Shown: positions 19,201-50,889 of the stretch, piece after piece | Position numbering within the stretch: position 1 is the stretch's first letter | Layout: each line of letters starts with the position of its first letter | Assembly: GCA_937925845.1 (NCBI GenBank) | Contig: CALAML010000150.1 | Location: forward strand, 8,235-72,234 | Reading direction: 5' to 3' | Length of the DNA stretch: 64,000 bases | Origin: an uncultured Acidimicrobiales bacterium | Lineage (GTDB): Bacteria > Actinomycetota > Acidimicrobiia > Acidimicrobiales > CALAML01 | Position numbers and translations under genes: made by a program | The notes under the pieces: generated by a model | Told to the model about the DNA's origin: nothing | Seen by the model: the letters and a program-made list of their open reading frames with translations, nothing else | Databases searched by the model: none

Positions 19201-19216
19201 CCGCTACTCTGGCCTC

Positions 19217-20038: not shown

Positions 20039-20051
20039 ACAGCCCGGCCTC

Positions 20052-23142: not shown

Positions 23143-25764
23143 CTAGTCGAAGGCGGGTCGACGGATGGCGCTCTGTAGCTCCCAGGAACGGATCGTGGGG
23201 CCGACGGCCACGTTGCCGACCTGGGCCCGGTTTACCCCTCGAGGATCCTCCACCACCAGGGTCGCGGGACCCAGCTCGGCCAGCGCCGGAACATGGTCGA
23301 CCCAGTCGCCGGGCCCAAACCCGATCTTGGCGTCGCGAACCAGGGCGAACCACCCGGCGAAGTCGTGGTCGAGCTCCACGGTGTAGGGAAACTCACGGCC
23401 AAAGGCCGGCAGCACCGCCAACTGGGCCCGAATCGTGGTCTCCAAACCCGAATAATCGCCGTCGGGCCACTCGGCCCGCACCAGGTCCTCGACCTCCGCC
23501 ATCAGCTCGGGCCACGACACCGGCGGCACCATCAACAGATGGGTGAGCTCATAGGCGGTGGCCAGGTTGGGATAGGTGTCGGGCGACTCAAGGATCAGCG
23601 CCAGCATCCGGCGCATGGCATCCACCTCACGCACACCGGCATGGCGGCGCAGGTAACGCAACACGTGGCGAAACACGCCGAAGGTCTCCGACAGGATGTA
23701 CATCAACCGCAGCTGACCCATGTAGCGGTAGTCATCGCGGGTGAACGACGCCGACGACACCACCAGCTCCCGACGCTGAGGGGCGCCCTGGAGAATATTG
23801 AAATCGGAAACGATGGCTTCGGTGCCGATCTCGAAGCGCTGGCGATACTCCGGGTCGTTCATCGGACTGTTCAATAACAGCTCGGTCTCATACACATGAG
23901 CGGTGATCTCTCGGTCCATGCACTGCTGAAGGTCCTCCGCCATCGACTCCGGAGTCTGGCCCGGCAGGCCAATCATCAGATGCACGTTCACCGGCAGGTC
24001 GTGTTCACGAAACTCGGCGGTCAGCTCGTCGTACTTGGCGGTCTTGATGTTTGACCGCTCGATGGCGGCGAGGGTGGTCTCGTCCATCGACTGCAACGAA
24101 ACGGTTCCGGTGGTGAGGATGTCGACCTCGACCAGCACCTCGATGATCTCGCGGAGGTACTTCACCGTGTTCTTGGCGTAGTTGGTGGTGAACTCCCGGG
24201 GAAACCCAAACTCCCGCCGGGTATCGGCGATCTGTCTGGCGAAGTCGATGTCGCGTTTGCGAATACCGAAGTTGGCGTCGGCGATGAAGATGCCCCGCAA
24301 CTGGTTCTCACCCACAAAGCGGATCTCGCCGTTCACCCGCTCCTCGTCGTACATACGAATCCGCGAGTTGGTGGCTGAGCCCCAGTCGCAGAACGTGCAC
24401 TTGTACGGACAACCGCGGTTGGTCTCGATGATGGGACCGGCATAGGACGGCAGGATCGAATCAAAGACGCCACTGAGATACGGCGACGGCACCTCGTTGG
24501 GATCCTCCATGCGGTCGCGATCCGGACCCCGCGCCGCCGAGCCGTCGGCGCGCCGGTAGGCCAACCCGGCGACCGACTCCAGACAACTCACGTCGAAGGT
24601 GCCGCTCTCGCGATAGGCCTCGGCCAGCGTCGACATCAGGTCGGCGGCGGTCAGCTCGCCCTCGCCGATCACGGCCACATCCACGCTCGGATTGTCGGCG
24701 AAGAACCGGCGAGTATCGAGCGGATACTTCGGCACGTTCGGACCGCCGTGCACCATGATTGCTTCCGGGTTGCGAGCCTTGATGGCGGCGCAGACCGCCA
24801 ACAGCTCGTGGGTGTTCCACACGTAGTCGGAGAACAGGTACACCGCCGGCCCCGATGGCAGCTCGTCCAAATCCAACGACGGCTGGACGAAACGCGGGGT
24901 GAGATCAAACACCTCGGCTAAGGCGGGCCGGCCCAGGGCCTCCATCGCGCTGTAGACCAGGCCCAGAGCCAAGGGGATGTTCAACAGGTCATACCAAACC
25001 CCGAACACCGGAATCCGCCCGCCCGAATCAGCGGCGGCGGAGTCCAACCCACGCAGGGGCGACGGATGATCGGCATGAGGATTGCCGGTCAGCCGCAGCT
25101 GGTTGCGACTGTGGGCCTGACGGCGAGCCACGCGGTCGGCCTGCGGCTCCAACAACCCGGCGTCGAGGGCAAAGTTCACCAGAGCCCACGCCCGCTCGGG
25201 CTTGACCGGGCTGGCCTCGATCACCGGTGCCGGCTCGGTGGCCCGCCGGAACGACGCCAGCAGCTGCACCTCAAAGGGCCGAAGCAGCACGGCATCGGTG
25301 GCTCGCCCATCGAGTCGACCGGCGAGGAGGAAACCGCCCGGTCGGGGCGACAGGAGCACCGGCGTGTCGAGCACTAAACGCGCGTGATCGGAGGGTTCGG
25401 CCGCTTCAGTCTCGCCGGCATCACCACCGAGGCTGCGCTCGCGGACCGAGCGGGGATCGGCGGCATCCGCGGAGCCGGGTGCCTCATCGACCAGCAACCC
25501 GTCGTCGAGGAGATGGTCGAGCAACTCCACCAGCTTCGGCCCATCAAAACGGGCCCGCAACCCGTCATCGGACAGGTCGGTGCCGGCGGCGAGAAAGGTG
25601 AGCAGGGCCAGACCCCGCGGGGTGATCGGTTGCCACTCAAGGGTGTCGACCCCTGAAGCCCCATCGGTGGCGAGGCGGGTCCGCGGGATCCCCAACCCGG
25701 TACCGGTGATGCCCACCACCACGCGAGGCGAAAGCCAGCGCGCTGAGTCCCCTCCCGATTTCAT
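23143..25764 (-). CDS. B12-binding-domain radical SAM enzyme with large N- and C-terminal extensions
   Basis: ORF 23143..25809. I use ATG 25764, 7 nt after the upstream stop. Cobalamin-domain pattern 'AAIKARNPEAIMVHGGPNVP...VDVAVIGEGE'. Radical-SAM cluster 'NRGCPYKCTFCDWG' (CxxxCxxC). About 270 aa precede and about 300 aa follow the core. Confidence 0.85.
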   Translation of the reverse strand: MKSGGDSARWLSPRVVVGITGTGLGIPRTRLATDGASGVDTLEWQPITPRGLALLTFLAAGTDLSDDGLRARFDGPKLVELLDHLLDDGLLVDEAPGSADAADPRSVRERSLGGDAGETEAAEPSDHARLVLDTPVLLSPRPGGFLLAGRLDGRATDAVLLRPFEVQLLASFRRATEPAPVIEASPVKPERAWALVNFALDAGLLEPQADRVARRQAHSRNQLRLTGNPHADHPSPLRGLDSAAADSGGRIPVFGVWYDLLNIPLALGLVYSAMEALGRPALAEVFDLTPRFVQPSLDLDELPSGPAVYLFSDYVWNTHELLAVCAAIKARNPEAIMVHGGPNVPKYPLDTRRFFADNPSVDVAVIGEGELTAADLMSTLAEAYRESGTFDVSCLESVAGLAYRRADGSAARGPDRDRMEDPNEVPSPYLSGVFDSILPSYAGPIIETNRGCPYKCTFCDWGSATNSRIRMYDEERVNGEIRFVGENQLRGIFIADANFGIRKRDIDFARQIADTRREFGFPREFTTNYAKNTVKYLREIIEVLVEVDILTTGTVSLQSMDETTLAAIERSNIKTAKYDELTAEFREHDLPVNVHLMIGLPGQTPESMAEDLQQCMDREITAHVYETELLLNSPMNDPEYRQRFEIGTEAIVSDFNILQGAPQRRELVVSSASFTRDDYRYMGQLRLMYILSETFGVFRHVLRYLRRHAGVREVDAMRRMLALILESPDTYPNLATAYELTHLLMVPPVSWPELMAEVEDLVRAEWPDGDYSGLETTIRAQLAVLPAFGREFPYTVELDHDFAGWFALVRDAKIGFGPGDWVDHVPALAELGPATLVVEDPRGVNRAQVGNVAVGPTIRSWELQSAIRRPAFD

Positions 25765-25771
25765 AGCGGCT

Positions 25772-26809
25772 CTAGCCTTCGCCGCCTTCTGCGGCCTCGG
25801 CGCCCTCAACCACTTCGTCGGGATAGAACTCCCACGACGCCTTCAGGTGCTTGCGGGTGTACGCGGTTGAGCGAGGCAGCTGAAGCGGCGTCCAGCTGGC
25901 GCCGAACGGGCCGGGAAAAAACTCACCCAACTGCACACCGGTGCCCGCACCCATAAGCCCAGGCGGCTCCCGGTTGAAGTGGGTGCGCCAGTACTTCTCC
26001 GAGAAGAACAGCGCACACTTGTCGAGCTTGATGTAGTCGTCGGTGAAGAGGAACCCGGTCATGGTGAGGTGGCGCCAGAGATGGCGGACACAATCATCGA
26101 GGCTCGACTGGAAGTCGACGTCGAGAAACAGCAGGGCGATCTCTTCGGTGTGATCGGGAAGGGTGTCGCTGAACCAGCCCTTGCGGAACTCGCACACCTC
26201 AAGCACGCCACCCTCGGCCACATTGGCCTTGACCTCGTCGAGGGTGCCGCAGAAAGCACCCTTGGCCATCTTCGGTGCGTACTGGTCGCCCTCCACGGGA
26301 GCCGGAAGCCCCTCGAAGGAGTCGTACACGATCAGATCCCGGCCGACGATGTCACAGGCCAACGACAGGTTGGCCGTCGAGGCCCCCTTAAAGGCGCCAC
26401 ACTCCACCACCACACCCGGAGCATCCGGCTTGAGCTCCATCAGCTTGGCCGCCATCAACAGATGGCTCTTGAAGCTGCTGGCGCTCTTCATCTTCTTCCA
26501 GTTGCTGTACATGCGATAGCTCAGCTTGAACTTCTTGAACCACGTCATCCCGTAGTCGGGGTGAATCCGCGAATTGTTCAACAAGAAGATTGCGGCGAGG
26601 GGCCACGATGCCGCCTCGTGGGTGCGAAGCATCAGCCGCAGAGCCCAGTCGTCGCTCTCGGACTTGCGGGTCTTCTGGCTCTTGACCGGCCCGCCGGTAC
26701 GGCCCGGCTTGCGGCCATCGGCAAACTCCGGCCCGGCACCGGACCTACCGTTGCCGCCCCGGCGCAACACCTGCTCAGCGTCAGCCGTGTTCGAGACGCT
26801 GCCGTTCAT
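25772..26809 (-). CDS. TylF-family O-methyltransferase with basic N-terminal extension
   Basis: 'VVECGAFKGAST', 'LLFLDVDFQSSL' and 'GFLFTDDY'. The start is uncertain: Met33 at 26809 overlaps the esterase 3' end by 29 nt, and an alternative GTG lies at 26770. Confidence 0.75.
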   Translation of the reverse strand: MNGSVSNTADAEQVLRRGGNGRSGAGPEFADGRKPGRTGGPVKSQKTRKSESDDWALRLMLRTHEAASWPLAAIFLLNNSRIHPDYGMTWFKKFKLSYRMYSNWKKMKSASSFKSHLLMAAKLMELKPDAPGVVVECGAFKGASTANLSLACDIVGRDLIVYDSFEGLPAPVEGDQYAPKMAKGAFCGTLDEVKANVAEGGVLEVCEFRKGWFSDTLPDHTEEIALLFLDVDFQSSLDDCVRHLWRHLTMTGFLFTDDYIKLDKCALFFSEKYWRTHFNREPPGLMGAGTGVQLGEFFPGPFGASWTPLQLPRSTAYTRKHLKASWEFYPDEVVEGAEAAEGGEG

Positions 26810-28361
26810 TTTGGTCGCTTTCGCCGCCACCGCCGTCCTTCCCATCGCCAAAAACTCGATCCAGAGCGAGGTCCGGGTTCTCAACCAGAGCCCGTACCCC
26901 GTCAAACCACATTGTCACACGCTTCTCCCTGAAGGGAAACCACGGAGGGAGACCGTCGTGCGACGGATTGCCACTACGGAGGAATGACAGAAGGGCCTGA
27001 TGCATGTCGCGGGCCATACCCCGCACCGTCGGAGACTGGGTGGCGCTGTTGTTAAAGACGTGGCGCAACTGGGCCGCATGGGCGGCGCCGTTGCCGCGGC
27101 CGCGATGGGCAAACAGGTACCGATATGCCGGCGCTTCGTAGTGATGGTCGCGGGTTGCGGCCAGCCGCGCCGCCGGCAGCCGGTAGAGCCAGTCGCTGCG
27201 GAAGGTGTCCCACGCTTCAACCGGATCGGTGTCGCCCTGAAGATAGAACGAGATGACGTCTTCGGCCCGGTCGGCCAGCGCCGGGTGGGCCGCCATTCGC
27301 CGAACCATCTCGTCCCGCTCCAGCACCGGCTTCTTGCCCGCCATCACAAACGGCACCCGAAGCTCATCGAGGTTGCTGCCAACCAGCAGCGGGATGTCGG
27401 GTGAGTCTCCCCGAGCGATCACCCCGAGCGGTGGCTCGCGCACCACCGTCGCATCGATCGTCGGACCAAGAAACAGGTGAGTGTCCTCCCGAATATTGGC
27501 CCGCTCCTCCAACCGCAGCTTCCACCACACCGCGCCCTGAGCCCGCACCAACTCTGCCGGCGGAAGCTCACGCAACCGGTGCGGGTCGTCGACCTTGAGG
27601 AACTCCATCACCCGCTCGGTGATCTCGACCGCCCGCTCGGTCGACCGCACCGTCTCGGCGGCACCACTCATCAACACCGCACCGGCCACACCATCGAGGG
27701 CCCCGGGAACCGACAACATCGTGGCGGTGGCCATGGCCCCGGCGGACTGACCCACCACCGTGATGCGTGCCGGATCGCCACCGAATTGCGCCACGTTCTC
27801 GCGCACCCACCGCAGCGCTTGCATCTGATCGGTGAGGCCGGCGTTACCCGAGGCGGCAAAGCTGTCATCGAGGTGTTCCAGATGAAGCCACCCCAGCGCC
27901 CCCAGCCGGTAGTTGATGGAGACCACCACCGCCGGACCGTTGCGAGCCACCCTCCGGGCTCCCGGGCTCACCGGCCGCTTCAGACCCCGAAGCCGGCCGA
28001 TCCCGGCGTTGTCCATGCGGGCCGAACCACCCACAAACGCCCCGCCGTGAATCCACACCAGCACCGGAAGGTCGGCGACCTCGAGGTTGGGCGAGATCAC
28101 GTTGAGGTTCAGACAGTCCTCGCTCGGGTCATAACCCTCCGGGAGCGGATCGGTCGGCGGGGACTGGGGCGAACTCTCGCCAAAGCGGGTGGCATCGAGG
28201 GTGCCACTCCAACCCGGATGAGCCACCGCCGGAGCGAAACGAGCGGCGCCCACCGGTGGCGCGGCATAGGGAATTCCGTGGAAGTGGTAAAGACCACGAT
28301 GCCGGAAGCCTTCGACCCGCCCGGTGGCGGTCGTGACGATCGTGGTGGAGTCGGTGGTCAC
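26781..28361 (-). CDS. type-B carboxylesterase/lipase family protein
   Basis: 'FHGIPYAAPPVG', 'VWIHGGAFVGGS' and nucleophile elbow 'GQSAGA'. Confidence 0.9.
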   Translation of the reverse strand: MTTDSTTIVTTATGRVEGFRHRGLYHFHGIPYAAPPVGAARFAPAVAHPGWSGTLDATRFGESSPQSPPTDPLPEGYDPSEDCLNLNVISPNLEVADLPVLVWIHGGAFVGGSARMDNAGIGRLRGLKRPVSPGARRVARNGPAVVVSINYRLGALGWLHLEHLDDSFAASGNAGLTDQMQALRWVRENVAQFGGDPARITVVGQSAGAMATATMLSVPGALDGVAGAVLMSGAAETVRSTERAVEITERVMEFLKVDDPHRLRELPPAELVRAQGAVWWKLRLEERANIREDTHLFLGPTIDATVVREPPLGVIARGDSPDIPLLVGSNLDELRVPFVMAGKKPVLERDEMVRRMAAHPALADRAEDVISFYLQGDTDPVEAWDTFRSDWLYRLPAARLAATRDHHYEAPAYRYLFAHRGRGNGAAHAAQLRHVFNNSATQSPTVRGMARDMHQALLSFLRSGNPSHDGLPPWFPFREKRVTMWFDGVRALVENPDLALDRVFGDGKDGGGGESDQNERQRLEHG

Positions 28362-28518: not shown

Positions 28519-29625
28519 ATGTTTCGCCTGCCGTTCTTCCGAGTCGACGTTGAGCCCACCAACCGCTGCAACGCGGACTGCTCGTTCTGCCCGCGACACA
28601 TGACCCCGCACGAGGGCCTGATGGCGGCGCCGGTATTCGACCAGGCCCTGAAACGCGTCGTCGAGTTTCGCAACGTAGTCGATGATTACCTCGACATGGA
28701 TGTTGGGGTATCGATGTGTGGCCTCGGAGAACCGTTGCTGCATCCGCAGTTGGCCGAATGGGTCGAGCGGGTCCGCCAGGAAGACCTCCTCTGCACCGTG
28801 AGTTCAAACGGGGCGGTACTCGATGAACGGCGTGGCGAAGCCCTGCTGGCGGCCGGACTCCAGGAGATCTACCTCAACGTCGGAGCCCGGGACGAGAGCT
28901 ACGAGGAGATCTACGACCTGCCCTGGGAACGCACCCGCGACAACGTCCTTGCCTTCGCCGAACGAGCCGCGGCTCACCCGATCGGCTGCGAGGTCCACAT
29001 GGTGCTGGTCGACCATCAGGGAGACGGCGACTCGGTACGAGCCGAGATGGACTTCTGGCGCAGCCACGGCATCACCAACTTTCTCGGCTTCGGCCTGATG
29101 AACCGGGGCGGTGCCCTCGAGACCGATCACAACCACTACGACGACTACCCGGGTCGCGCCGAGGCCACCGAGATGTTCGAAGGCGAGGGTGGACTGCCCC
29201 GCTGCAACGTTCCGGCCATGCTGCCCTTCATCGGCTACGACGGCCTCTACTACCTGTGCTGTTCCGACTGGGTCAAGGAAGCATCGTTTGGCCATGTCGA
29301 CGACCTGGCGATCCACGACCTGTTGGTGGCCAAGGCCCGCCACGTCGATCGGCGAGCGGCACCGTGCGCCACCTGCAGCAACGATCCTCTCAACCACCTC
29401 ACGATGGTGGTCGGCGACGAGCTGACCGACCCCAACCCCGAAACCACCCAGCGCAGCAAGGACTCGGCAGCCTGGCTCAGCCAGTTTGTCGACGCCGGCA
29501 AACAGTATTCCGAAGTCATCAAAGCCCTGGCGCCAGCGATGCACCCACTGTTGGCCAAAGGACCGTCCTCCGAAGCGCCGGTTTCGAGCACGGGACGAAG
29601 GCTGATCCCCGTGACCGGACGCTGA
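28519..29625 (+). CDS. radical SAM enzyme with twitch/partial-SPASM C-terminal domain (paralog A)
   Basis: ATG 28519 is preceded by GAGGAGACGAGAGGAG. 'EPTNRCNADCSFCPR' (CxxxCxxC), 'CGLGEPLLHP' and 'VSSNG'. Auxiliary motif 'CNVPAMLPFIGYDGLYYLCC' (C-x12-G-x4-C), then 'PCATC'. Confidence 0.85.
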   Translation: MFRLPFFRVDVEPTNRCNADCSFCPRHMTPHEGLMAAPVFDQALKRVVEFRNVVDDYLDMDVGVSMCGLGEPLLHPQLAEWVERVRQEDLLCTVSSNGAVLDERRGEALLAAGLQEIYLNVGARDESYEEIYDLPWERTRDNVLAFAERAAAHPIGCEVHMVLVDHQGDGDSVRAEMDFWRSHGITNFLGFGLMNRGGALETDHNHYDDYPGRAEATEMFEGEGGLPRCNVPAMLPFIGYDGLYYLCCSDWVKEASFGHVDDLAIHDLLVAKARHVDRRAAPCATCSNDPLNHLTMVVGDELTDPNPETTQRSKDSAAWLSQFVDAGKQYSEVIKALAPAMHPLLAKGPSSEAPVSSTGRRLIPVTGR

Positions 29626-30698
29626 TGCGGTTCCCCCACGTTCGGGTCGATATCGAGCCCACCAACCGGTGCAACGCCTCGTGTTCGTTCTGCCCACGCG
29701 ACATGACGCCACACGTGGGCCTGATGACCGAAGACATCTTCGAAGCGACGCTGGCCCACACCGTGCGTCTCCACGAACAGGTCACCACCAAGCTCGGCCT
29801 CACCCTCGGAGTTTCGCTGTGCGGTTTGGGCGAACCGCTGATCAACCCACTCACCCCGGAGTGGATCGCGGCGATCCGCAGCGAGGGCCTCGACGTCTCG
29901 GTCACCAGCAACGGGGCACTGCTCGACCAGGCCCGGGGCGACGCCCTCCTCGACGCCGGGTTAAGCGAAATCATGATCAACGTCGGAGAACGCGACGCCG
30001 AGTACGAGGCGGTGTACGGATTGCCGTGGGAACGCACCCGGGACCGGGTGATCCGCTTCGCCCAGGATGCCGAGGACCGCTGCGACATCACCATGGTGCT
30101 GGTCGACCACCGCCGCGACCCCGACCACATCGAAGCCCAGAAGACGTTCTGGCGCAGCCACGGCGTCACTCGCTTCGTGAGCTACGAAGTCATGAACCGG
30201 GGCGGCTCGCTGTTTGTGGACCACATGCGCTTCGCCGACTACCCCGAACAAACCCAGGCCGAGGCCATGTTCGCCGAACGGGGTGGCACCCCACCTTGTC
30301 TGGCGCCGTTTGTGTTCCCCTTTGTCGGCTACGACGGCTACTACTACCTCTGCTGCTCCGACTGGAAGAAGGAAGCGGCGACCGGCCACGTTCTCAAGCA
30401 CTCGTTCGCCGACGCGCTCGCGGCCAAACTCGACCACGTCACCGCCCGCCAAGCCCCGTGTCAGACCTGCAACGTTGACCCACTCAACCGCCTCACCTCG
30501 GAGCTGCGGGCTGCGGCCGAGGGCCACACGCTGGAGGAGCCACCCGACGAGCTGGCCGACAAGCTGGTGGGCTGGGGCCACCAGGTGGTCGAGATCGCCG
30601 AAACCCTGGCGCCGTTTGCGGCCAACCCCGCCGCGGCCTCGGAAACACCCGCTCCCGGACCGGTGCCGGTGACGCTCGGACCAGCACCGCCGTCATGA
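29625..30698 (+). CDS. radical SAM enzyme with twitch/partial-SPASM C-terminal domain (paralog B)
   Basis: ORF opens at 29256. ATG 29625 overlaps the upstream stop (TGATG). 'EPTNRCNASCSFCPR', 'CLAPFVFPFVGYDGYYYLCC' and 'PCQTC'. Roughly 55-60% identity to paralog A by eye. Confidence 0.85.
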   Translation: MRFPHVRVDIEPTNRCNASCSFCPRDMTPHVGLMTEDIFEATLAHTVRLHEQVTTKLGLTLGVSLCGLGEPLINPLTPEWIAAIRSEGLDVSVTSNGALLDQARGDALLDAGLSEIMINVGERDAEYEAVYGLPWERTRDRVIRFAQDAEDRCDITMVLVDHRRDPDHIEAQKTFWRSHGVTRFVSYEVMNRGGSLFVDHMRFADYPEQTQAEAMFAERGGTPPCLAPFVFPFVGYDGYYYLCCSDWKKEAATGHVLKHSFADALAAKLDHVTARQAPCQTCNVDPLNRLTSELRAAAEGHTLEEPPDELADKLVGWGHQVVEIAETLAPFAANPAAASETPAPGPVPVTLGPAPPS

Positions 30699-31408
30699 CC
30701 ACCGGCATCGCCACCGGGCCAACACTCACCGAGGCCCAGGTCGAGTTCTTCAACACCTTCGGCTACCTGGTCCTGCCCGGATGGTTCGCCGCCGAAATCG
30801 ACGACATCACCCGGGCCTTCGAAGCCAAGTTTGCGGCCAGCGAACCGGTTCTGATGGACGCGGCCAACCCCTATCACGTCGCCACCGACCCGGCCTACGC
30901 CGAACACCTGCGAGAGATCGTGGTGCCCTTTGTCGAAGGCGACGACGGGCTCGAGTGGCTGGTGACCGACCCCCGCCTCACCGGTGTGGTCGAGGCGCTC
31001 CTTGGCGACGCCGAGTTCCGGGGCAGCGATGGCAACCGCTTCAACTGCGACGTCCACTACCACGCCGATGTGTACCTTTCGCCGCTGCGCACCCGAAACG
31101 TGAAGGTCTACTTCTACCTTGAGGACCTCACCGCCGAGACCGGTGCGCTGCGTATGATCCCGGGCACCAACTTCCACCTCAGCCCCTTCGCTCGGGCCCT
31201 CCAGCGGGACCTGCAGTCGCCGGATCACACCGAGTCGACCTTTGGGCTTCATGGCCGTGAGGTACCGGCGGTGACACTGCCCACCCAGCCCGGCGACATC
31301 GTGGTCGGTGACTTCCGCACCCTGCACGGAAGCTTCGGCGGGGCGCCGGGGCGCCGGCTCTTCACCCTCAACTGGCGCAAGATCGAACCGGACGCGGCCG
31401 CGGAATGA
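30695..31408 (+). CDS. PhyH-family Fe(II)/2-oxoglutarate dioxygenase (paralog 1)
   Basis: 'QVEFFNTFGYLVLPG' is a PhyH N-terminal signature. 'HYHAD' (HxD), 'GALRMIPGTN' and 'RTLHGS' (distal His). ATGA overlap upstream. Confidence 0.8.
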   Translation: MTTGIATGPTLTEAQVEFFNTFGYLVLPGWFAAEIDDITRAFEAKFAASEPVLMDAANPYHVATDPAYAEHLREIVVPFVEGDDGLEWLVTDPRLTGVVEALLGDAEFRGSDGNRFNCDVHYHADVYLSPLRTRNVKVYFYLEDLTAETGALRMIPGTNFHLSPFARALQRDLQSPDHTESTFGLHGREVPAVTLPTQPGDIVVGDFRTLHGSFGGAPGRRLFTLNWRKIEPDAAAE

Positions 31409-32196
31409 CCACCGGTCTCACCGCCCACCAGGTGGCCCACTTCGACACCTTCGGGTACGTGGCCCTGCCCGGGCTGTTTCTGGACGAGATCACCAACCTC
31501 GACACCGCCTTCGAAGAAGCCTTCGCCGCCGCCGCAGCCCTCGACCCGCCGGAGGTGCTCGAGTTTGAAGGGGACCTCCACCTCAACCAAACCCGCCGCA
31601 TCCTGATGTCGATCGCCGACCGTCACCCGGCAATCGGGGCGGTGCGAGCCGACCCCCGACTGCAAACCATCGCCGGGCAGATTCTTGGCGACCGGTTCGA
31701 GGAAGCTGGCAGCGACGGCAGCATCTTTTCCTGCGAGAGCTCCTGGCACGCCGACACGTTCCACGCCCCGCTGCGACAACGACACATCAAGTTCTCGTTC
31801 TACCTCGACTCCCTCGGTGGCGAGAGCGGTGCCATCCGCATGATCCCGGGCACCAACCACCACCAGACCCGGTTCGCCCGCACCCTGCGTCGCACCCTTC
31901 GGGACCCGGCCGAAATCGAAACCGCCTTCGGTGTCGACCCCGGCTCGGTGCCTTCGGTGGTGGTGCCCAGCGAACCTGGCGACGTGATCCTGTGGGATTA
32001 CCGCACCATCCACGGCAGCTTCCGCGGCGGCGATCGGCGCCGGCTGTTCTCCATCAGCTTCCGCGAGATCCTCGACGAAGCTGACGAGCAGTCTGGCGCC
32101 AACGAGCTCTCGGCGTCGTCGGGCTGGCTCGGCGACAACAGCGACGTGCCAGAGGGCGGGCTGTCGCAGGCCATCACCCACGGGTCCGGCAGCTGA
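31405..32196 (+). CDS. PhyH-family Fe(II)/2-oxoglutarate dioxygenase (paralog 2)
   Basis: 'QVAHFDTFGYVALPG', 'SWHAD', 'GAIRMIPGTN' and 'RTIHGS'. ATGA overlap upstream. Confidence 0.8.
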   Translation: MTTGLTAHQVAHFDTFGYVALPGLFLDEITNLDTAFEEAFAAAAALDPPEVLEFEGDLHLNQTRRILMSIADRHPAIGAVRADPRLQTIAGQILGDRFEEAGSDGSIFSCESSWHADTFHAPLRQRHIKFSFYLDSLGGESGAIRMIPGTNHHQTRFARTLRRTLRDPAEIETAFGVDPGSVPSVVVPSEPGDVILWDYRTIHGSFRGGDRRRLFSISFREILDEADEQSGANELSASSGWLGDNSDVPEGGLSQAITHGSGS

Positions 32197-32239: not shown

Positions 32240-32977
32240 ATGACGAATCACCTGAACGGCTCCGGGCAGTCGCAGTACCGGGCCGACCCCGATGCTGAGG
32301 CTCCGAGCCCCACGGCCGCGGTAGCGGAGGCTGCGTCCGGCGCCGGGAACCGCGTCCGTTCGATGGTTCGCGGTCGACGCGAGACACCAGCACCGGGATC
32401 CGACCCCAAGGCCGAACTGATGGCCGACGTGCGCCGCCGCCACCCCGGGTTCTGGGAAGCGGTGCGGGCCGACGCCGAGATCACCGCCGCCAACCGCGGC
32501 GAACGACACCAGTTCACCTCCGAACTCGATGCGGTTCGGGAAGCGATCCGCCTGGCGACGGTCAGCGATGCCTTTCTCGGTCAGGTCTACTACCGGGCCA
32601 AGGCGGCGATGCAGGCCAAGGGCATCCCGCTGCTGCCACGAATCGCCCACCGCAAAGCCATGTCGAGTGCCCAGGTGTGTATCGGTGACCCGGTGGTGAT
32701 GGCACCCGGCGTCTACCTGGCCCACGGCCAGGTCGTGATCGACGGCATCACCGAGATCGAAGCGGGCGTCACCATCTTCCCGTGGGTCACCATCGGGCTT
32801 CGCCCGCCCGATGTGCAGGGTCCCACCATCAAGGCCCGAGCCAAGATCGGCAGTGGCTCGAAGGTGCTCGGCGCGGTCACCATCGGCAAATTCGCCAAGG
32901 TTGGCGCCAACGCCGTGGTGCTTGTTGATATACCCAACAACAAGACGGCGATCGGGATCCCAGCGACCGTTCGCTGA
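32240..32977 (+). CDS. hexapeptide-repeat acetyltransferase (serine O-acetyltransferase/CysE-like)
   Basis: Left-handed beta-helix repeats 'IGDPVVMAPGVYLAHGQVVIDGITEIEAGVTIFPWVTIG...AKIGSGSKVLGAVTIGKFAKVGANAVVL'. The helical N-terminal region resembles the SATase N-terminal domain. Confidence 0.8.
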   Translation: MTNHLNGSGQSQYRADPDAEAPSPTAAVAEAASGAGNRVRSMVRGRRETPAPGSDPKAELMADVRRRHPGFWEAVRADAEITAANRGERHQFTSELDAVREAIRLATVSDAFLGQVYYRAKAAMQAKGIPLLPRIAHRKAMSSAQVCIGDPVVMAPGVYLAHGQVVIDGITEIEAGVTIFPWVTIGLRPPDVQGPTIKARAKIGSGSKVLGAVTIGKFAKVGANAVVLVDIPNNKTAIGIPATVR

Positions 32978-33050: not shown

Positions 33051-34070
33051 ATGAGCCTGACAGAGAGCGAAGTTCCACCAACGGCCGAAGTAGGCCTCGA
33101 AGAAGCGCTTGAGCGCATCGATCGGCTGATGAGCCAGATCGGCAAGAGCAACAACGGGCGACCCCGACTCGAAGCGGAGCTGGTACAGGCCCGCTACGAG
33201 GCGTTTGCCCCGCTCAAGGCTGCGGCCGACACCAAGCCGACGGTGCTGCCACCGGTCGCCGACGGCGACCCGCTACCGACCCACGGCGGCATCCCGATCG
33301 TCGACGCCTCAGAGATGACCGGCGCCCTGATCCGCAAGGGCATCCTCCAGGGTGGCGCCACGATGGTACGCGGGCTCTTCGACCCCGAGACCATCGAGAG
33401 CATCCGCGGCGGAATCGACAAGTCGCTTGGGGCCATGGCCAAAGAGCCCCGAGAGCCCCGCAACTCGTGGTATCAGCCGTACTCGCCCGAGCAGGAGTTC
33501 GAACTCAACGTCCAGCGCCACTGGGCCGTCGACTGCGGCGCCATGCTGGCCTCCGACTCACCCCGGGTGCTCTTTGAGGTACTCGCGGCATACGAGCGCA
33601 GCGGCGTGGTGCGGGTGATCAACGAATACCTCGGCGAGCGGCCGGCCATCTCAATGAAGAAGACCGTGCTGCGCCGGGTCGATGTCGACATCCCGGCCGA
33701 CTGGCACCAGGACGGCGCCTTTATGGGCGACAGCCTCTTCAGCCTCAACGTCTGGACCACACTTACCGACTGCGGCAAGGATGCCCCCGGCCTCGACCTG
33801 GTCCCGGCCCGCCTCGACGCCCTGGTGGAAACCGGCACCGAAGGGGCCCACTTCGACTGGTCGGTAGCCCCGGCCGCAGTGGTTGACGCCGCCGGCGACA
33901 CGCCGTTGGCCCGGCCCGATTTCAAGGCCGGGGACGTGGTGTTCTTCGACGAATTCTGCATGCACCGCACCGGCGCCGACGCCGCCATGACGGACCGGCG
34001 CTACGCGGTAGAAATGTGGAGCTTCGCCCCATCGCGATACCCGGGCACCCAGATCCCCCTGGTGATCTGA
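33051..34070 (+). CDS. PhyH-like Fe(II)/2-oxoglutarate dioxygenase with ~95-aa N-terminal helical extension
   Basis: 'ADWHQDG' (HxD), 'GLDLVPARL' and 'FCMHRT' (distal His). Confidence 0.7.
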   Translation: MSLTESEVPPTAEVGLEEALERIDRLMSQIGKSNNGRPRLEAELVQARYEAFAPLKAAADTKPTVLPPVADGDPLPTHGGIPIVDASEMTGALIRKGILQGGATMVRGLFDPETIESIRGGIDKSLGAMAKEPREPRNSWYQPYSPEQEFELNVQRHWAVDCGAMLASDSPRVLFEVLAAYERSGVVRVINEYLGERPAISMKKTVLRRVDVDIPADWHQDGAFMGDSLFSLNVWTTLTDCGKDAPGLDLVPARLDALVETGTEGAHFDWSVAPAAVVDAAGDTPLARPDFKAGDVVFFDEFCMHRTGADAAMTDRRYAVEMWSFAPSRYPGTQIPLVI

Positions 34071-34083: not shown

Positions 34084-37000
34084 TTACTGGCTAATCCGCT
34101 GGAGCACGCCGCCCTTGATGAAGCCGGCCTCCCGGCGATCGAGGTGGGTTTCTCGCACGAAGTCCTCACGGCTGCCCACGATGGCATCCACCGCCTCGGC
34201 CGGGCCGGCACCATAACCACTCCACACCGGGTGACCGTTCACGATCGTGTCCTCGAACACGGCGAACTGGTTCAGCCCAACCAGATGCGAATACTCGCCG
34301 AACAGTCGGAGAAGCTGGCCCATGTTGTGGCGGCTCAGCATCAACATGGCGTTCGGGTCGTCGCCCATCACCGACCGCAACCGATCGATGGTCTCCGGCG
34401 CCGTCGGATCGAGCGTCAACGTGGTGAGCCGCTCATGGGTCGGCTCGTCCCCGCCTGACCCAGCGTCGCCACCATCACCGTTACCCCCACCATCACCGGC
34501 ATCGGGAGACACCACCGACAGCACCTGACCGTGTCCGATCAGCTCGCAGATCGTGGCCAGGAACCAGGCTCGCTCCGGATCACCGATGTCGATCACGTAG
34601 TCGGGACGCGACGTTGACATCAGCTCCTGATAGGCCATCAGGTCGGCACTCGGCCGTCCGATGGTGCGACCCAACCATTCGGTGCGCTCCCAACTCATCG
34701 AGTTGTACAGCGCGTGGGTAAAGCCGTCCCGAAGCTCTTCGGGAATCGGTACCGCCTGCTCCGGCCGGCCATCGGCGCCGGTGGGGTTGGCCTTGACGAA
34801 GTAGGCCGGAGCCAGCAGCCGCCGCGGTCGGGTCCGCTTGGCCTGATTGCCCATCGAACCAACAAAGTGCAGCGGCTTCTTGGTGGCCCGGAAGGTGACG
34901 CCTCGCAGATCCTCGTAGTGATCACGATAGGAAACCAAGCGCCGCGTCCGCTCGCCAACGTCGGGCATGTTGGTGGTGGTGCCGCCGTGGACCTGATGGA
35001 ACGATGCCTCGCCGAGGGTCGTCACCACCTTCACATCGGGCCGCGACGTATGACGCTCGTAGAAGTCGAGGTTGGCATAGCCACCCCCGGCCATCGAGAA
35101 CGCCTCGTCCATCGAGCCGCACTGCTCCAACAGCGACCGAGGTAGGAAGATGCAGTTGCTCTCGATCATGGGATCGAGCCAGTCGCGATCGCCGATGAAG
35201 TGGCCGATGTTAAACAGCCGGTAACCGTCCTCGGGCCAGTTCACCTCCTTGAACAGACGATCCTCAAAGCGCTGGTTGTAGCCGCCCTGCATGGCCTCGC
35301 TCTGCTGACCCGGCCCCACAAACCATTGCTGGGTGGTGATCACGGCCGGCGGATAGGTGGCGATACCGGTCAGCGCCGCCGACAACACGCCCGGGGTCAG
35401 CACATGGGCCCCGTCGATCATGAAGCCGATGTTGTCGCCCCGCGACTTCTCGACGCCGAAGTTCAAGGCGTTCACCGGACTCGGGGCCGCTTCGTCGCCG
35501 AGGTCGAAGTAGCGGAACTCGGGCCCAAACGAGCGCACGTAGTCCTCGCCCAACGCCTCTTCCGGCTTCGAGCCGTTCTCGACCACAAGCACCTCGTAGT
35601 CGACGTCCTCCAGACCCAATTGGTACGAGCGGCTCAACGAATGCAGGGTGCGAGCGGCCTCGCGCTTCATGTTGTAGAAGACCACCACAACCGACAGGTC
35701 ACACGTTTTGGCCTGGCGCCGGAGATCGGGGATGGGTGCGGCCCGAACCACCGGCTCGTCGGAAGCATCCACCGACTCGGCCTCGGCCTCCTTCTCCCAG
35801 GTGACGCTGACCGAATCGATCCGCTCCAGCACCTCGGTGATCCCGGCCTCCGACCGGAACTCCTGCAACGCCTCTTCGATGTCGGGTTCGGTGCCGCGCT
35901 CGATGATGATCTGCCCGCCCTTGGAGACGCGAGGGTAGAGCTGGGTCAGCGTGCTCACCACATGCTTGGCCTCAACGTTGAGCCGCAACAGCGCCAGCTC
36001 GCCGATCGGGTTCGACGGCAGGGTCACCTCCAAGTCGCCCTGGAGGAAGTGGACCCGATCATCCAGAAGGTCGTAGCGGGCAAAGACCTCCCGCACCTCG
36101 TTCAGATCGGTCGGCGCCACTGAGTCGTCTTCGAGACGGAACTGGTCGGCCACCCACACATGGCGGGCCTCGTCCTCCCAGGCCTCGAGGTAGCCGCGCA
36201 GAAACACCGACTCGCCGCCGCCATCGGTACCCACCACCATGAAGTCGCCCTCGACCTCGCGCTCACGCAGCGAATCGAGCTGACCCCGCAGATGGTCGAG
36301 GCGGTAGTCACCCATCCGGGCATAAGGCAGGAAAGCGGTGCGGTCGGCCACGTTGGTGCGAGGCGGGAAGCCGCTACGACGCTTGGCCTCAAGCTCGCGG
36401 CCCTTCCACAACAGCGCCCGCATCGGGTCCCGAAGGGTGCTGCGATCGGGGGTGGTGCCCCGACGGGCACACATCAACAGATGCTCCATCCGCAGCTCGT
36501 TCTCGATGTAGAAGGCGTTGAGCAACGACTTCTTCAAGATGTTGAGGTAGCGGTCAGCGGAGCGTTCCTGGGCCTTGTTGGCCACCGACACGCCGTAGTT
36601 GTGGTGGTACTCGATATCGGTGAGGCGAAGATCCTCGGTCATCTCGAGCAGCTGCTTGCGGGTGTGGGTCCGCTCCAGCTTGTCGAGGGCATGGGCCAGC
36701 CGCGGCCGCTTCTCCAGATACTCCTCCTCGACCATGATCAACAGGCCGAAGTAGACCGGGAGGAGCACCCGGCGAATCTTCTTCGGGTGCTCCTTCTGGA
36801 AGTCGTCGATGGCGGTCATCACACCGTTGCGCTTGCCGCCCTCAACCACCGCGTTGGCCAGCTGGGAGTTCACGCCGAAACCGGCGCGCGGATGAAGCCG
36901 ACGCCGTCCGCGAACGATGCCGCGCCGCATCCACGGCTGGCGGAACTCGTCGGGAATCTGCTCCGGTGCGTAGTAGAGGTCGCGGCGACCATAAGGCCAC

Positions 37001-37374
37001 AGCACGTCGTGGCAGATCATCACCGGCATCGGTTTGTCGTTGCGGGTGGTCACCTCCGTCAGCGCCTTGAGCTCGTGATACACGGTGAACCAGTTGTGGT
37101 CACCGTCGACCAGAGCGACGTCCATCGGCGGCAGGTCATCCAACACATCGAGGCTCAGGGCCCGATGGAAGATGTACTTGCCCGGGAACGCTGCGGCCTG
37201 TTCATCGGGGTCGAACTGCGGCAGTGGATCGATCACGTGGAGCTCGGCCCTGGGGCCGAGGGCGTTGACCATCAGCTCGGTGGTCTCACCGCGCAAGGCC
37301 CCAATCTCCACCATACGGTTGGCGCCAGCGGCGCGGATTACGGGTTCGATGGCAATTTCCCAGAACGGAAACAC
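34084..37374 (-). CDS. 1096-aa four-domain enzyme: class-I methyltransferase, degenerate TylF-like domain, GT2-like glycosyltransferase, CmcI-like methyltransferase
   Basis: N-terminus 'MVEIGALRGETT...LVDGDHNW'. Middle 'DRYLNILKKSLLNAFYIENE...GDFMVVGTDGGGESVFLRGYL...VWVADQF...LLRLNVEAK...GGQIII'. GT2-like 'LSVVVVFYNMKREAARTLHSLS...YEVLVVENGS...FMIDGAH...FHQVHGGTTTN'. C-terminus 'WLGRTIGRPSADLMAYQELMSTSRPDYVIDIG'. Confidence 0.8.
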   Translation of the reverse strand: MFPFWEIAIEPVIRAAGANRMVEIGALRGETTELMVNALGPRAELHVIDPLPQFDPDEQAAAFPGKYIFHRALSLDVLDDLPPMDVALVDGDHNWFTVYHELKALTEVTTRNDKPMPVMICHDVLWPYGRRDLYYAPEQIPDEFRQPWMRRGIVRGRRRLHPRAGFGVNSQLANAVVEGGKRNGVMTAIDDFQKEHPKKIRRVLLPVYFGLLIMVEEEYLEKRPRLAHALDKLERTHTRKQLLEMTEDLRLTDIEYHHNYGVSVANKAQERSADRYLNILKKSLLNAFYIENELRMEHLLMCARRGTTPDRSTLRDPMRALLWKGRELEAKRRSGFPPRTNVADRTAFLPYARMGDYRLDHLRGQLDSLREREVEGDFMVVGTDGGGESVFLRGYLEAWEDEARHVWVADQFRLEDDSVAPTDLNEVREVFARYDLLDDRVHFLQGDLEVTLPSNPIGELALLRLNVEAKHVVSTLTQLYPRVSKGGQIIIERGTEPDIEEALQEFRSEAGITEVLERIDSVSVTWEKEAEAESVDASDEPVVRAAPIPDLRRQAKTCDLSVVVVFYNMKREAARTLHSLSRSYQLGLEDVDYEVLVVENGSKPEEALGEDYVRSFGPEFRYFDLGDEAAPSPVNALNFGVEKSRGDNIGFMIDGAHVLTPGVLSAALTGIATYPPAVITTQQWFVGPGQQSEAMQGGYNQRFEDRLFKEVNWPEDGYRLFNIGHFIGDRDWLDPMIESNCIFLPRSLLEQCGSMDEAFSMAGGGYANLDFYERHTSRPDVKVVTTLGEASFHQVHGGTTTNMPDVGERTRRLVSYRDHYEDLRGVTFRATKKPLHFVGSMGNQAKRTRPRRLLAPAYFVKANPTGADGRPEQAVPIPEELRDGFTHALYNSMSWERTEWLGRTIGRPSADLMAYQELMSTSRPDYVIDIGDPERAWFLATICELIGHGQVLSVVSPDAGDGGGNGDGGDAGSGGDEPTHERLTTLTLDPTAPETIDRLRSVMGDDPNAMLMLSRHNMGQLLRLFGEYSHLVGLNQFAVFEDTIVNGHPVWSGYGAGPAEAVDAIVGSREDFVRETHLDRREAGFIKGGVLQRISQ

Positions 37375-38145
37375 TTAGGGTCCTCCAGCGGAGAGAGTGG
37401 GAGAGGGAACACCGGAAGAACTTCCGGCGCTTGGGGTGCGGGCGGCAACCAGGTTCTGGGCGAACTGGTAGAGCTCTACGTCGGCAGCGTTATCGCGGGC
37501 GATCCGTTGCCGAAGATCATCATCCACGGGCTCGGCCCGGGTGGCGTTGGCGGTGAGTTCGGGGCCAAGATCGATCCCGAAGCGTTGGGTCAGCTCGGCG
37601 CAGAAGTCGTCGAAGGTCTCCTGCAACCCGACCACATCAATCAGCTCAAGCTCGCGCTTGGCTGTCTCCAGCCGCTCGTTGTCGATCGGCTGCACGGTAA
37701 GCATGCCCGCCGGCTGAATCTCATCAACCGTCAGCGAGAACATCTTGGTCATGTGGTTGTGGATCATGCCGTCGAAACGAAACGGATCTTCGTAGATCTC
37801 TTCGAGGCTGAGGTGGGCGTCCGCGGGAAAGAACATCTTGTGATAGCGCAGATACGACAGCGTGCGCTCCACCGGATCCCGCAACACCGTGAAGGTGGTG
37901 AAGTCGGCGTCGAGCAGTTCGACGGTGGCGAGGGGGAAGTGACCGGCCACCACCTTGATGTCGTCGCCGCGCTGATGCCAACGATCAACCAGATGGTCGA
38001 CCATGATCGTCCGCTGGTCGCGGGCACCATCGAGTTCGTCGCAGGGATAGACCGCGGTATCTCCAAAGGCATGACGCAACCGCATCAGCAGGCTGGTGCC
38101 CGCCGTCTTTTGCAGATGCACATAGAAGAACCGCTCGTCGGTCAT
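37375..38145 (-). CDS. sulfotransferase (Sulfotransfer_2-like, paralog 1)
   Basis: N-terminal 'FFYVHLQKTAGTSL' matches the FxHIPKTGGTS PAPS-binding loop. 'TVLRDPVERTLSYL' matches the 3'-phosphate-binding RDPxxR(x)xS motif. Confidence 0.75.
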   Translation of the reverse strand: MTDERFFYVHLQKTAGTSLLMRLRHAFGDTAVYPCDELDGARDQRTIMVDHLVDRWHQRGDDIKVVAGHFPLATVELLDADFTTFTVLRDPVERTLSYLRYHKMFFPADAHLSLEEIYEDPFRFDGMIHNHMTKMFSLTVDEIQPAGMLTVQPIDNERLETAKRELELIDVVGLQETFDDFCAELTQRFGIDLGPELTANATRAEPVDDDLRQRIARDNAADVELYQFAQNLVAARTPSAGSSSGVPSPTLSAGGP

Positions 38146-38147: not shown

Positions 38148-38882
38148 TTATGCGCCACCACCATTGGTCGATTCCCGGTGGTAGCGGGCGCGCGCTGCTT
38201 CGTAAAACGCAATGTCCGCCGCATTGTCCACGGTGATTCGTTCCCTCAATCCCGCCGGCAGGTCGAATGGGTCACTTACATGAATGTTCGGCACTTCATC
38301 GAAGGACCAGCCATAGAGATCGGTCATGGTCTGCATCAGGAAGCCGAGATCATCAGTGAACCCAACGTGGTCGACCTCGTCAAGATGAACCAGCGCGGTT
38401 TGCACCCGGGCCTCGTCCACGTCGATCACATCCATGTACGACTCGAGCTTGTCGGAGCGGTCCATGGCGAAGATCTTCACCTGGTGGTTGTGCATGAAGC
38501 ACTTGAAGTAGAACTCGTCGTCGTAGATCTCGTCGAGTGGCATGTTGGCGTGCTGGGCGTGGGTGACGCTGGCGTGCTTCAGATAGGAGATGATGCGGTC
38601 GACCGGGTCTCGCAGGATCGTGAAGGTGATCGGCTTGCGGGGCAGCATCTGGCTGGCGATATACGGGAAGTGCCCGGTGTAGGCACGGGTTCCGGCGTGT
38701 TGCTCCTCGGAGCGGCCCAGCAGGTACTGGATCGACGTGTTGGCGTGGAACATGTCGTCCACCCGCTTGATCGGGTAGACCTCGCCGTCGGCGAAGTTGT
38801 TGTACACGTGCTGGCGGAACGTCGCCCCGGCGGTCTTCATCACGTGGACAAAAAAGAATGGCTGATCAGTCGGTTCGCTCAC
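38148..38882 (-). CDS. sulfotransferase (Sulfotransfer_2-like, paralog 2)
   Basis: 'FFFVHVMKTAGATF' and 'TILRDPVDRIISYL'. Paralogous to 37375..38145. Confidence 0.75.
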   Translation of the reverse strand: MSEPTDQPFFFVHVMKTAGATFRQHVYNNFADGEVYPIKRVDDMFHANTSIQYLLGRSEEQHAGTRAYTGHFPYIASQMLPRKPITFTILRDPVDRIISYLKHASVTHAQHANMPLDEIYDDEFYFKCFMHNHQVKIFAMDRSDKLESYMDVIDVDEARVQTALVHLDEVDHVGFTDDLGFLMQTMTDLYGWSFDEVPNIHVSDPFDLPAGLRERITVDNAADIAFYEAARARYHRESTNGGGA

Positions 38883-47507: not shown

Positions 47508-47559
47508 CAGTCTCCGAGACAGATCAGGCTTTGGTCGATCCTCCGGCCTCCACTAATCT

Positions 47560-50877: not shown

Positions 50878-50889
50878 GTCCGGCCGAGG

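Follow-up and report, generated by a model that had tools for sequence, protein, structure and literature searches.

The DNA analysed here, a window of 64,000 nucleotides (nt) from contig CALAML010000150.1 of an uncultured Acidimicrobiales bacterium, contains a cassette of four co-directional genes at 28519-32196 on the forward strand, coordinates being read from the sequence itself. Two of the genes encode paralogous radical S-adenosylmethionine (SAM) enzymes, rSAM-A and rSAM-B, and two encode paralogous PhyH-type Fe(II)/2-oxoglutarate dioxygenases, PhyH-1 and PhyH-2. Across phyla, the rSAM family is accompanied by this PhyH subfamily, by sulfotransferase-like proteins of the type that uses 3'-phosphoadenosine 5'-phosphosulfate (PAPS), and by O-methyltransferases.

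The rSAM-A/rSAM-B junction is a TGATG, in which the A of the stop codon TGA (29623-29625) is the first base of the ATG at 29625. The rSAM-B/PhyH-1 and PhyH-1/PhyH-2 junctions are ATGA overlaps (30695-30698 and 31405-31408). These junctions, and the existence of two paralogous pairs (rSAM-A and rSAM-B are 54% identical, E 8e-119; PhyH-1 and PhyH-2 are 41% identical, E 3e-55), confirm what an initial annotation made from the sequence had described. The genes are probably translationally coupled in an overlapping operon and, since two real paralogue pairs lie in one operon, the cassette pattern is far beyond chance. The rSAM-A start at 28519 was preferred to that of a longer open reading frame (ORF) from ATG 28447 because AGGAG is found 6 nt 5' of the former and because homologues align from its first residues (alignments begin at residue 1-9). 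The same-strand block continues beyond the cassette to six genes (28519-34070), with a hexapeptide-repeat O-acyltransferase gene, probably in the same operon, and a third PhyH gene as the last member; the intergenic gaps around it are 157, 43 and 73 bp, the last separating acyltransferase from third PhyH. A promoter and terminator scan of 28.2-34.3 kb gave no signal above shuffle expectation. The G+C content of the window is ~64-65%, with a strong third-position bias.

A neighbour-joining tree groups rSAM-A with rSAM-B as each other's closest relatives; the tandem rSAM pairs of two related loci (L005 and L018) are lineage-specific, and Halieaceae carry two old rSAM clades. PhyH-1, whose nearest relative sits in locus L007, and PhyH-2 belong to two older, separate subtypes (P1 and P2), as do the two Sulfotransfer_2-like proteins of the window, which are 31% identical. 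The AABB order of the cassette is therefore not the simple duplication of a two-gene unit, and a simple co-duplication of an rSAM/PhyH/sulfotransferase triad was ruled out on the same observations. The 'duplicated two-step module' proposed initially thus holds for the rSAM pair but not for the PhyH pair.

The radical-SAM and PhyH proteins

Both rSAM proteins carry EPTNRCNA(D/S)CSFCPR, the CX3CX2C cluster motif being C17-x3-C21-x2-C24 in rSAM-A and C16/C20/C23 in rSAM-B, and the SAM-binding GGE-like motif GLGEP is invariant in the family. Both score above the cut-off of Pfam Radical_SAM (PF04055), and their SPASM scores are borderline (Table 1). Their auxiliary cysteines are C229-x12-G-x4-C247-C248 and C283-x2-C286, that is, C-x17-CC...CxxC. 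In a census of 44 aligned homologues, conserved auxiliary cysteines were limited to these five, which are invariant, and the full SPASM seven-cysteine motif was absent from rSAM-A and rSAM-B; an invariant Asn, N292, occupies the position of the third Cys of the SPASM CX2CX5CX3C segment. C67 and C157 are nearly invariant. All the motifs quoted in the initial annotation, including the C-x12-G-x4-CC and PCxTC regions, are thus present in both proteins, and its classification of them as twitch-like rather than full SPASM agrees with this census and with the structural comparison below. By their sequences, rSAM-A and rSAM-B are twitch-type enzymes with a predicted SAM-cleaving [4Fe-4S] site and a predicted single auxiliary cluster, for which four ligands and an extra Cys are available.

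The best match of the rSAM-A AlphaFold model (predicted local distance difference test score, pLDDT, 88) among PDB folds was BtrN (4m7t; E 1.2e-11, template-modelling (TM) score 0.69 normalised to BtrN), followed by DesII, SuiB, BlsE and MoaA. Four of these five best distinct matches (BtrN, DesII, BlsE and MoaA) act on sugars or nucleotides; SuiB, CteB and SkfB are also among the fold matches. BtrN, like SpeY, is a twitch dehydrogenase of aminoglycoside biosynthesis. It shares with the rSAM family the cysteine logic of a single auxiliary cluster (C...C...CxxC) and the absence of a peptide-recognition domain, and its substrate is a carbohydrate-like ring; cysteine pattern and top fold match both place the rSAM proteins in the BtrN-like twitch group. 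However, identity to BtrN is only 18% (sequence E 0.009), the rSAM family has the extra invariant Cys (CC), a helical C-terminal extension of ~75 residues and an RRxIPV tail, and its partners, PhyH and sulfotransferase, are unlike those of the butirosin cluster. Sequence searches of the PDB with the rSAM proteins gave only weak matches to the radical-SAM core (E at least 1e-4).

Comparison with NCBIfam models, recommended in the initial annotation, placed the rSAM proteins in no characterised subfamily. Every match of rSAM-A and rSAM-B was far below cut-off, the best being W_rSAM_matur, a tungsten-cofactor maturase model (59.5 versus 380 bits), and the model for anaerobic sulfatase-maturating enzymes (anSMEs) was not in the 25 best matches. 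More distant relatives also have no NCBIfam name. As judged from these models, the family is a member of no named radical-SAM equivalog.

The family tail, [RK][RK]x[IVL]P[VIL], follows a variable, low-confidence linker and was present in 95 of 117 full-length homologues. It is GRRLIPV in rSAM-A (29560-29625) and is missing from rSAM-B and from its orthologue P0006; it may be a docking motif. Four distant relatives (P0242, P0248, P0258 and P0268), which score 130-137 bits against the family profile, retain CC(S/N/H)D and CxxC. P0248, P0258 and P0268 have an N-terminal extension of ~80 aa that by eye resembles a peptide-recognition element, and in P0242 the rSAM domain follows a C-terminal fragment of a family 4 glycosyltransferase (GT4), either a fusion or a gene-call run-on. 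No fusion of rSAM to PhyH or to a sulfotransferase was found among the 150 best representatives.

Both cassette dioxygenases exceed the cut-off of Pfam PhyH (PF05721; Table 1). H115-x-D117...H203, the facial triad reported for both proteins in the initial annotation, and R212/R213, the 2-oxoglutarate-binding basic residue, do not vary among 41 PhyH homologues; because HxD is retained, PhyH-1 and PhyH-2 should be oxygenases and not halogenases. Neither had any NCBIfam match, and a PDB sequence search gave a weak match to EctD only. The AlphaFold 2 model of PhyH-2 (pLDDT 89.5) is a double-stranded beta-helix fold, with GriE, SnoK/SnoN, EvdMO1/EvdO1/EvdO2, EctD, proline hydroxylase, HygX and AviO1 as about equal neighbours, of which SnoK/SnoN, EvdO1/EvdO2/EvdMO1, AviO1 and HygX act on sugars.

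Distribution and conserved neighbours of the rSAM family

The rSAM family is compact, with 528 close matches, mostly 43-53% identical, among 5.8 billion clustered proteins. In a set of 1.84 billion, only 156 representatives reached E<=1e-30, many of them fragments. The PhyH-1/2 subfamily is equally compact (327 matches), and many of its members are on contigs equal in size to those bearing rSAM genes. Genome matches of rSAM come from Acidimicrobiia (Microthrixaceae, Iamiaceae, Acidimicrobiales), the gammaproteobacterial family Halieaceae (Halioglobus, Haliea) and Binatia; the Halieaceae carriers include the cultured H. japonicus and Halioglobus sp. Uisw_031 (complete genome NZ_CP159826.1).

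Every ORF from 76 loci (the rSAM gene and 10 kb on each side) was clustered without prior labels, shadow ORFs being set aside. The most frequent neighbours were the PhyH-1/2 subfamily (59 loci), Sulfotransfer_2-like proteins (46) and FkbM methyltransferases (36), followed by a 650-700-aa sulfatase (29), a fusion of aldolase-II and short-chain dehydrogenase/reductase (SDR) domains (28), SnoaL_4 (27), the different PhyH subfamily represented in the window by the third PhyH protein (PhyH-339; 26), the hexapeptide transferase (21) and a large methyltransferase-glycosyltransferase protein (17). The co-occurrence of homologues with PhyH, sulfatase or glycan genes in other genomes, on which the initial annotation had made its proposal depend, is therefore real. 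The PAPS-binding loops 'h..KTaGTS' and 'lRdPv.RtlSyL' are conserved across the Sulfotransfer_2-like family.

Two sets of loci with at least 5 kb on each side, 23 from Halieaceae and 22 from Actinomycetota, were compared. Neighbours of the rSAM gene in Halieaceae were PhyH, FkbM and aldolase/SDR (22/23 each), the sulfotransferase-like protein and the sulfatase (21/23 each) and SnoaL_4 (19/23). The corresponding figures in Actinomycetota were 14/22 for the PhyH-1/2 type, 10/22 for PhyH-339, 8/22 for the sulfotransferase-like protein, 8/22 for the large methyltransferase-glycosyltransferase protein, 7/22 for GT4 and 0/22 for the sulfatase. Only PhyH, the sulfotransferase-like protein and O-methyltransferases are shared as partners by the two phyla.

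In Halieaceae the module forms a compact cluster of ~10 kb. In Halioglobus L081 (OZ245784.1, 7024-20437) it reads PAP2, glycosyltransferase, PhyH, FkbM, FkbM, sulfatase, rSAM, SnoaL_4, rSAM, sulfotransferase-like, aldolase/SDR, and it is also found in L053 (H. japonicus). The gene between its two rSAM genes encodes a single-domain SnoaL_4 protein, and the cluster also has a divergent gene for a secreted, unnamed 360-aa protein. Related actinobacterial loci carry Wzz/Wzy, family 2 (GT2) and GT4 glycosyltransferases, ABC-2 transporters and polytopic membrane proteins. For example, L004 has PhyH, rSAM, rSAM and a sulfotransferase-like gene adjoining glycosyltransferase, Wzz and Wzy genes, and L002 has rSAM then PhyH among TylF, hexapeptide transferase and large methyltransferase-glycosyltransferase genes. 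Proteins of 534-643 aa without a Pfam match adjoin the module in L002 (7170-8810, 13615-15249 and 15523-17454) and L003 (11166-12770); they are polytopic (8-11 hydrophobic segments), have a soluble domain at the C-terminus and by eye resemble GT-C-type glycosyltransferases or polymerases.

The gene cluster around the cassette

The cassette sits mid-way in a cluster of ~36 kb (~18.1-55 kb; Table 1) that, from its gene content, looks like an ATP-binding cassette (ABC) transporter-dependent pathway for a heavily methylated, sulfated cell-surface glycan. The carbohydrate context suggested initially is confirmed by the flanking glycosyltransferase, methyltransferase, sulfotransferase and ABC exporter genes. 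Beyond ~18 kb on the left and ~55 kb on the right the genes are unrelated, of housekeeping or miscellaneous type, and the annotation of the window showed no polyketide synthase (PKS), nonribosomal peptide synthetase (NRPS) or terpene genes.

Table 1. Genes of the cassette and of the cluster that surrounds it (positions in the window).
Feature	Position	Strand	Properties
GT4, unknown ORF, FkbM methyltransferase, TylF methyltransferase	18145..21442	+	left part of cluster; from annotation of the window
HipA-type toxin kinase	21466-22764	-	HipA_C and Couple_hipA domains
B12-binding radical-SAM C-methyltransferase-like (KedN5-like)	23143..25809	-	888 aa; 251 bits (cut-off 700)
TylF-type methyltransferase and carboxylesterase	25772..28361	-	divergent from cassette
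rSAM-A	28519..29625	+	368 aa; twitch-type radical SAM; Pfam Radical_SAM 58.4 bits (cut-off 29.5), SPASM 19.6 bits (cut-off 21.5); AlphaFold 2 pLDDT 88
rSAM-B	29625..30698	+	357 aa; rSAM-A paralogue; Pfam Radical_SAM 42.5 bits, SPASM 22.3 bits
PhyH-1	30695..31408	+	237 aa; Fe(II)/2-oxoglutarate dioxygenase, P1 subtype; Pfam PhyH 44.5 bits (cut-off 22)
PhyH-2	31405..32196	+	263 aa; Fe(II)/2-oxoglutarate dioxygenase, P2 subtype; Pfam PhyH 54.2 bits; AlphaFold 2 pLDDT 89.5
Hexapeptide-repeat O-acyltransferase (EpsC/CysE-like)	32240..32977	+	43 bp after PhyH-2; homologues in 21 related loci
Third PhyH-family dioxygenase	33051..34070	+	339 aa; different subfamily (PhyH-339); homologues in 26 related loci
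Methyltransf_24, TylF, GT2 and CmcI/rhamnosyl-O-methyltransferase multidomain protein	34084..37374	-	1096 aa
Sulfotransfer_2-like a	37375..38145	-	256 aa; Pfam 22.5 bits (cut-off 22); KTAGTS and RDPVERTLS
Sulfotransfer_2-like b	38148..38882	-	244 aa; 31% identical to a
Fourth PhyH dioxygenase	38879..40426	-	515 aa; C-terminal UvrC-like helix-hairpin-helix region
GT2 (633 aa), GT2+GT4 (1235 aa), Sulfotransfer_3, ABC-2 permease, ABC ATPase	40439..49841		assembly/export part
Sulfotransferase, two sulfatases, GT2	49852..55066		right edge of cluster; sulfatase motif C-x-G-S-R
Sulfatase 1	50890-52299	-	CIGSR for C-x-P-x-R; paralogue of sulfatase 2
Sulfatase 2	52402-53844	-	CLGSR for C-x-P-x-R; paralogue of sulfatase 1

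The two Sulfotransfer_2-like proteins match Pfam PF03567 at the threshold, with 22.5 and 21.6 bits, over their N-terminal 100 residues only, and have no NCBIfam match. In protein a, KTAGTS corresponds to the PAPS 5'-phosphosulfate motif and RDPVERTLS to the 3'-phosphate motif. The 1096-aa multidomain protein may be a chain-modifying or chain-terminating glycan enzyme; in L002, L003 and L004, all actinobacterial loci, its orthologues (1093-1134 aa) adjoin the rSAM gene. The fusion of the fourth PhyH protein to a helix-hairpin-helix region is unusual for a small-molecule oxygenase and has homologues in ~12 related loci.

To the left of the cassette, the KedN5-like protein has an N-terminal extension of ~320 aa without Pfam match, and genes for B12 radical-SAM proteins often accompany P1-type PhyH in related loci (L003, L015, L019, L020 and L059). 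The HipA kinase gene lies mid-cluster, between the TylF methyltransferase and B12 radical-SAM genes, with an 88-aa ORF directly upstream (22764-23030, - strand). A 309-aa protein with two SnoaL-like domains is encoded just past the right edge of the cluster (55448-56377, + strand) and may be functionally related to the Halieaceae SnoaL_4 protein. Outside the cluster, a gene at 7759-9435 (+ strand) encodes a protein of 558 aa that has four calcium-binding RTX repeats and carries a DUF6174 domain at its C-terminus.

Candidate substrates and roles of the module

We give about an even chance to the reading in which the cassette forms the centre of a conserved module for the oxidative tailoring of a substrate containing carbohydrate, and the surrounding cluster makes a cell-surface glycan bearing methyl and sulfate groups. 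No export signals were noticed by eye in the four cassette proteins, whose site of action would be the cytoplasm and whose substrate would be a nucleotide sugar or a lipid-linked glycan before export; in an ABC-transporter-dependent pathway the glycan would be completed in the cytoplasm. The module could tailor its substrate there because SAM, reductant, Fe/2-oxoglutarate and PAPS are available. Each rSAM enzyme would take H from a sugar carbon, leading to dehydrogenation of the BtrN/DesII type or epimerisation of the AviX12/NeoN type; C67, C157 or C247/C248 might, speculatively, be a thiol H donor. Each PhyH would oxidise a second C-H, and the new or re-oriented hydroxyls would be capped by the Sulfotransfer_2-like enzymes (sulfation) or by methyltransferases. 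The two copies of each enzyme may serve two positions or two residues, and the sulfatases, once exported, would act outside the cell to remodel or recycle the product. The initial suggestion that hydroxyls made by PhyH are later sulfated or methylated gains indirect support from the rank of the Sulfotransfer_2-like and FkbM proteins as second and third most conserved neighbours; the evidence for the class of substrate is contextual.

The nearest documented analogue of this combination of enzymes is orthosomycin tailoring. In avilamycin biosynthesis the oxygenases AviO1-3 are combined with AviX12, a radical-SAM sugar epimerase, and with many O-methyltransferases (PMC8234114). The orthosomycin set (AviO1-3, EvdO1/O2/EvdMO1, HygX, AviX12, AviG) comprises PhyH-type oxygenases acting on sugar C-H, a radical SAM enzyme acting on sugar, O-methyltransferases, glycosyltransferases and ABC transporters (PMC8234114). 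However, the product is an oligosaccharide antibiotic of Streptomyces and Micromonospora, made without sulfotransferases. A second comparison is with the gene neighbourhoods described by Iyer, Abhiman, de Souza and Aravind (2010; PMC2938197), in which PhyH-family dioxygenases are linked with sulfotransferases, (CmcI-like) methyltransferases and acetyltransferases, and hydroxylation was proposed to precede sulfation or methylation. The linkage of PhyH, sulfotransferase and methyltransferase is the same, but these neighbourhoods are not defined by a twitch radical-SAM partner, and their predicted substrates are collagen-like or tail-collar proteins or peptides, none of which is encoded at the cassette locus.

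Several observations weigh against the glycan-tailoring interpretation. First, the fold matches are at superfamily level only (TM 0.5-0.7, 12-25% identity). Second, the amino-acid hydroxylases GriE, EctD and proline hydroxylase score as well as sugar oxygenases for PhyH-2, and the orthosomycin oxygenases among its neighbours are alike at the fold level only (E ~1e-12), a non-specific likeness. Third, the rSAM gene is found without any of the conserved neighbours in actinobacterial loci L026, L030, L047 and L074, and most Halieaceae loci have no adjacent glycosyltransferase, PAP2 with a glycosyltransferase being present in 9 loci only. Fourth, the conserved Halieaceae partners sulfatase, SnoaL-like protein and aldolase-II/SDR also fit a small-molecule or lipid pathway. 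Finally, hydroxylation of a normal sugar carbon is a non-obvious route to a sulfation site.

A role for the module in making or modifying a metabolite or lipid that is not a polymer, such as a sulfated, methylated sugar, cyclitol or glycolipid head group, instead of a polysaccharide is unlikely, although the best of the alternatives; the glycan cluster of the window would then be only one of several hosts. The compact Halieaceae set, mostly without glycosyltransferase and sometimes with PAP2 and a glycosyltransferase, would suit such a role, as would the aldolase-II/SDR fusion, which is also 3' of the rSAM gene in actinobacterial L003 and L012, and the action of BtrN on a free cyclitol. However, the Actinomycetota module lies among GT2/GT4, Wzz/Wzy and ABC-2 transporter genes and the gene for the 1100-aa methyltransferase-glycosyltransferase protein, and the window annotation contains no PKS, NRPS or terpene genes.

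Sulfatase maturation, the alternative raised in the initial annotation, appears improbable: the rSAM enzymes would be anSME-like maturases that convert the active-site Cys of co-clustered sulfatases, including the C-x-G-S-R pair of the window, to formylglycine. That pair is indeed unusual, the formylglycine motif being C-I-G-S-R in the first and C-L-G-S-R in the second instead of C-x-P-x-R. The formylglycine-generating enzyme (FGE) needs Pro and might not accept C-x-G-S-R. BtrN-type enzymes and anSMEs carry out two-electron oxidations of one kind, and the rSAM family resembles anSMEs (AtsB, anSMEcpe, ChuR) in having a radical-SAM core and a C-terminal Fe-S domain that starts C-x9-15-G-x4-C. 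In 21/23 Halieaceae loci the gene directly upstream of rSAM encodes a sulfatase with a canonical CTPSR motif. The first window sulfatase, with its twin-arginine motif RRTF and a match below cut-off to the Pfam twin-arginine translocation (TAT) signal, may be matured in the cytoplasm. Homologues of the window subfamily ('YC(S/N)VPxC...') are encoded a few kb from the module in Halioglobus L050, L069 and L076, with an intact C-Q-A-S-R in L050 (16554-18044); the motif is a canonical C-Q-P-A-R in Acidimicrobiia L020 (1264-2919), so that the proline position is variable in this subfamily.

Other results argue against sulfatase maturation. No sulfatase was found within 5 kb in the 22 actinobacterial loci with full flanks, and those of the window lie 19 kb from the cassette, beyond the ABC transporter; since a sulfatase adjoins rSAM in Halieaceae and not in Actinomycetota, this role is a minority rival. 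PhyH and the sulfotransferase-like gene, neither of which a maturase needs, are more conserved partners than any sulfatase, and many Halieaceae loci have two rSAM genes per one sulfatase. The rSAM family has no CX2CX5CX3C and hence lacks the second auxiliary cluster of all known anSMEs, which places it outside the anSME definition; anSMEcpe was a weaker structural match than BtrN, ranking 17 in the fold search behind BtrN, DesII, SuiB, BlsE and MoaA, and the anSME model stood outside the 25 best NCBIfam matches, all of which were far below cut-offs. The two-to-two stoichiometry that had been drawn between rSAM and sulfatase genes is better explained by the two Sulfotransfer_2-like genes (37375-38882), which with two rSAM and two PhyH genes give 2:2:2. 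A fainter prospect still is that the family is a third kind of sulfatase-maturating enzyme, with a single auxiliary cluster and operating in aerobes, that would also serve C-x-G/A-x-R sulfatases that FGE may reject, the PhyH and sulfotransferase partners belonging to the same sulfate-ester cycle. Were maturation its role, the family would bear on sulfatase maturation outside the FGE and anSME systems.

Least probable of all is modification of a ribosomal peptide or protein, either by maturation of a peptide made by the ribosome and modified after translation (RiPP) or by the hydroxylation and then sulfation of some structural protein. Most SPASM/twitch enzymes mature peptides, SuiB, CteB and SkfB are among the rSAM-A fold matches, and distant relatives P0248, P0258 and P0268 have the N-terminal extension mentioned above; protein substrates were also predicted for operons of dioxygenase and sulfotransferase genes (Iyer et al., 2010; PMC2938197). 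However, the rSAM proteins start ~10 residues before CX3CX2C and therefore have no N-terminal recognition domain, and the gaps beside the cassette leave no space for a small ORF, as the initial annotation had remarked. The search it proposed for short ORFs accompanying homologues (25-110 aa, outside long ORFs) revealed none conserved across the 76 loci, the recurring clusters (<=9 loci) being translations of rRNA operons. A RiPP role, which would entail a RiPP recognition element (RRE)/PqqD-like domain or an adjacent precursor gene, neither of which rSAM-A or rSAM-B has, was rejected on this basis; protease, leader-processing, collagen-like or tail-collar genes were not seen in the annotated neighbourhoods either. 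With neither a conserved small ORF nor a peptide-recognition domain, a peptide substrate is unlikely.

A full-text literature search retrieved no description of a radical-SAM/PhyH/sulfotransferase module, the relevant papers being Iyer et al. (2010) and the orthosomycin review alone. What appears new is a conserved, unnamed association of three enzymes; its proposed kind, carbohydrate tailoring by radical-SAM and 2-oxoglutarate enzymes, is known. To our knowledge, radical-SAM chemistry on cell-surface glycans, unlike that on antibiotics, is barely documented, and little is known of how bacteria make sulfated glycans. Since cultured Halioglobus strains carry the module, its function is open to genetics and biochemistry, unlike in the uncultured source of the window. 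If the glycan-tailoring reading is true, a compact set of enzymes (radical SAM, 2-oxoglutarate oxygenase and PAPS sulfotransferase) would decorate bacterial surface glycoconjugates by C-H chemistry in abundant, poorly studied groups, the Acidimicrobiia/Microthrixaceae of soils and activated sludge and the marine Halieaceae.

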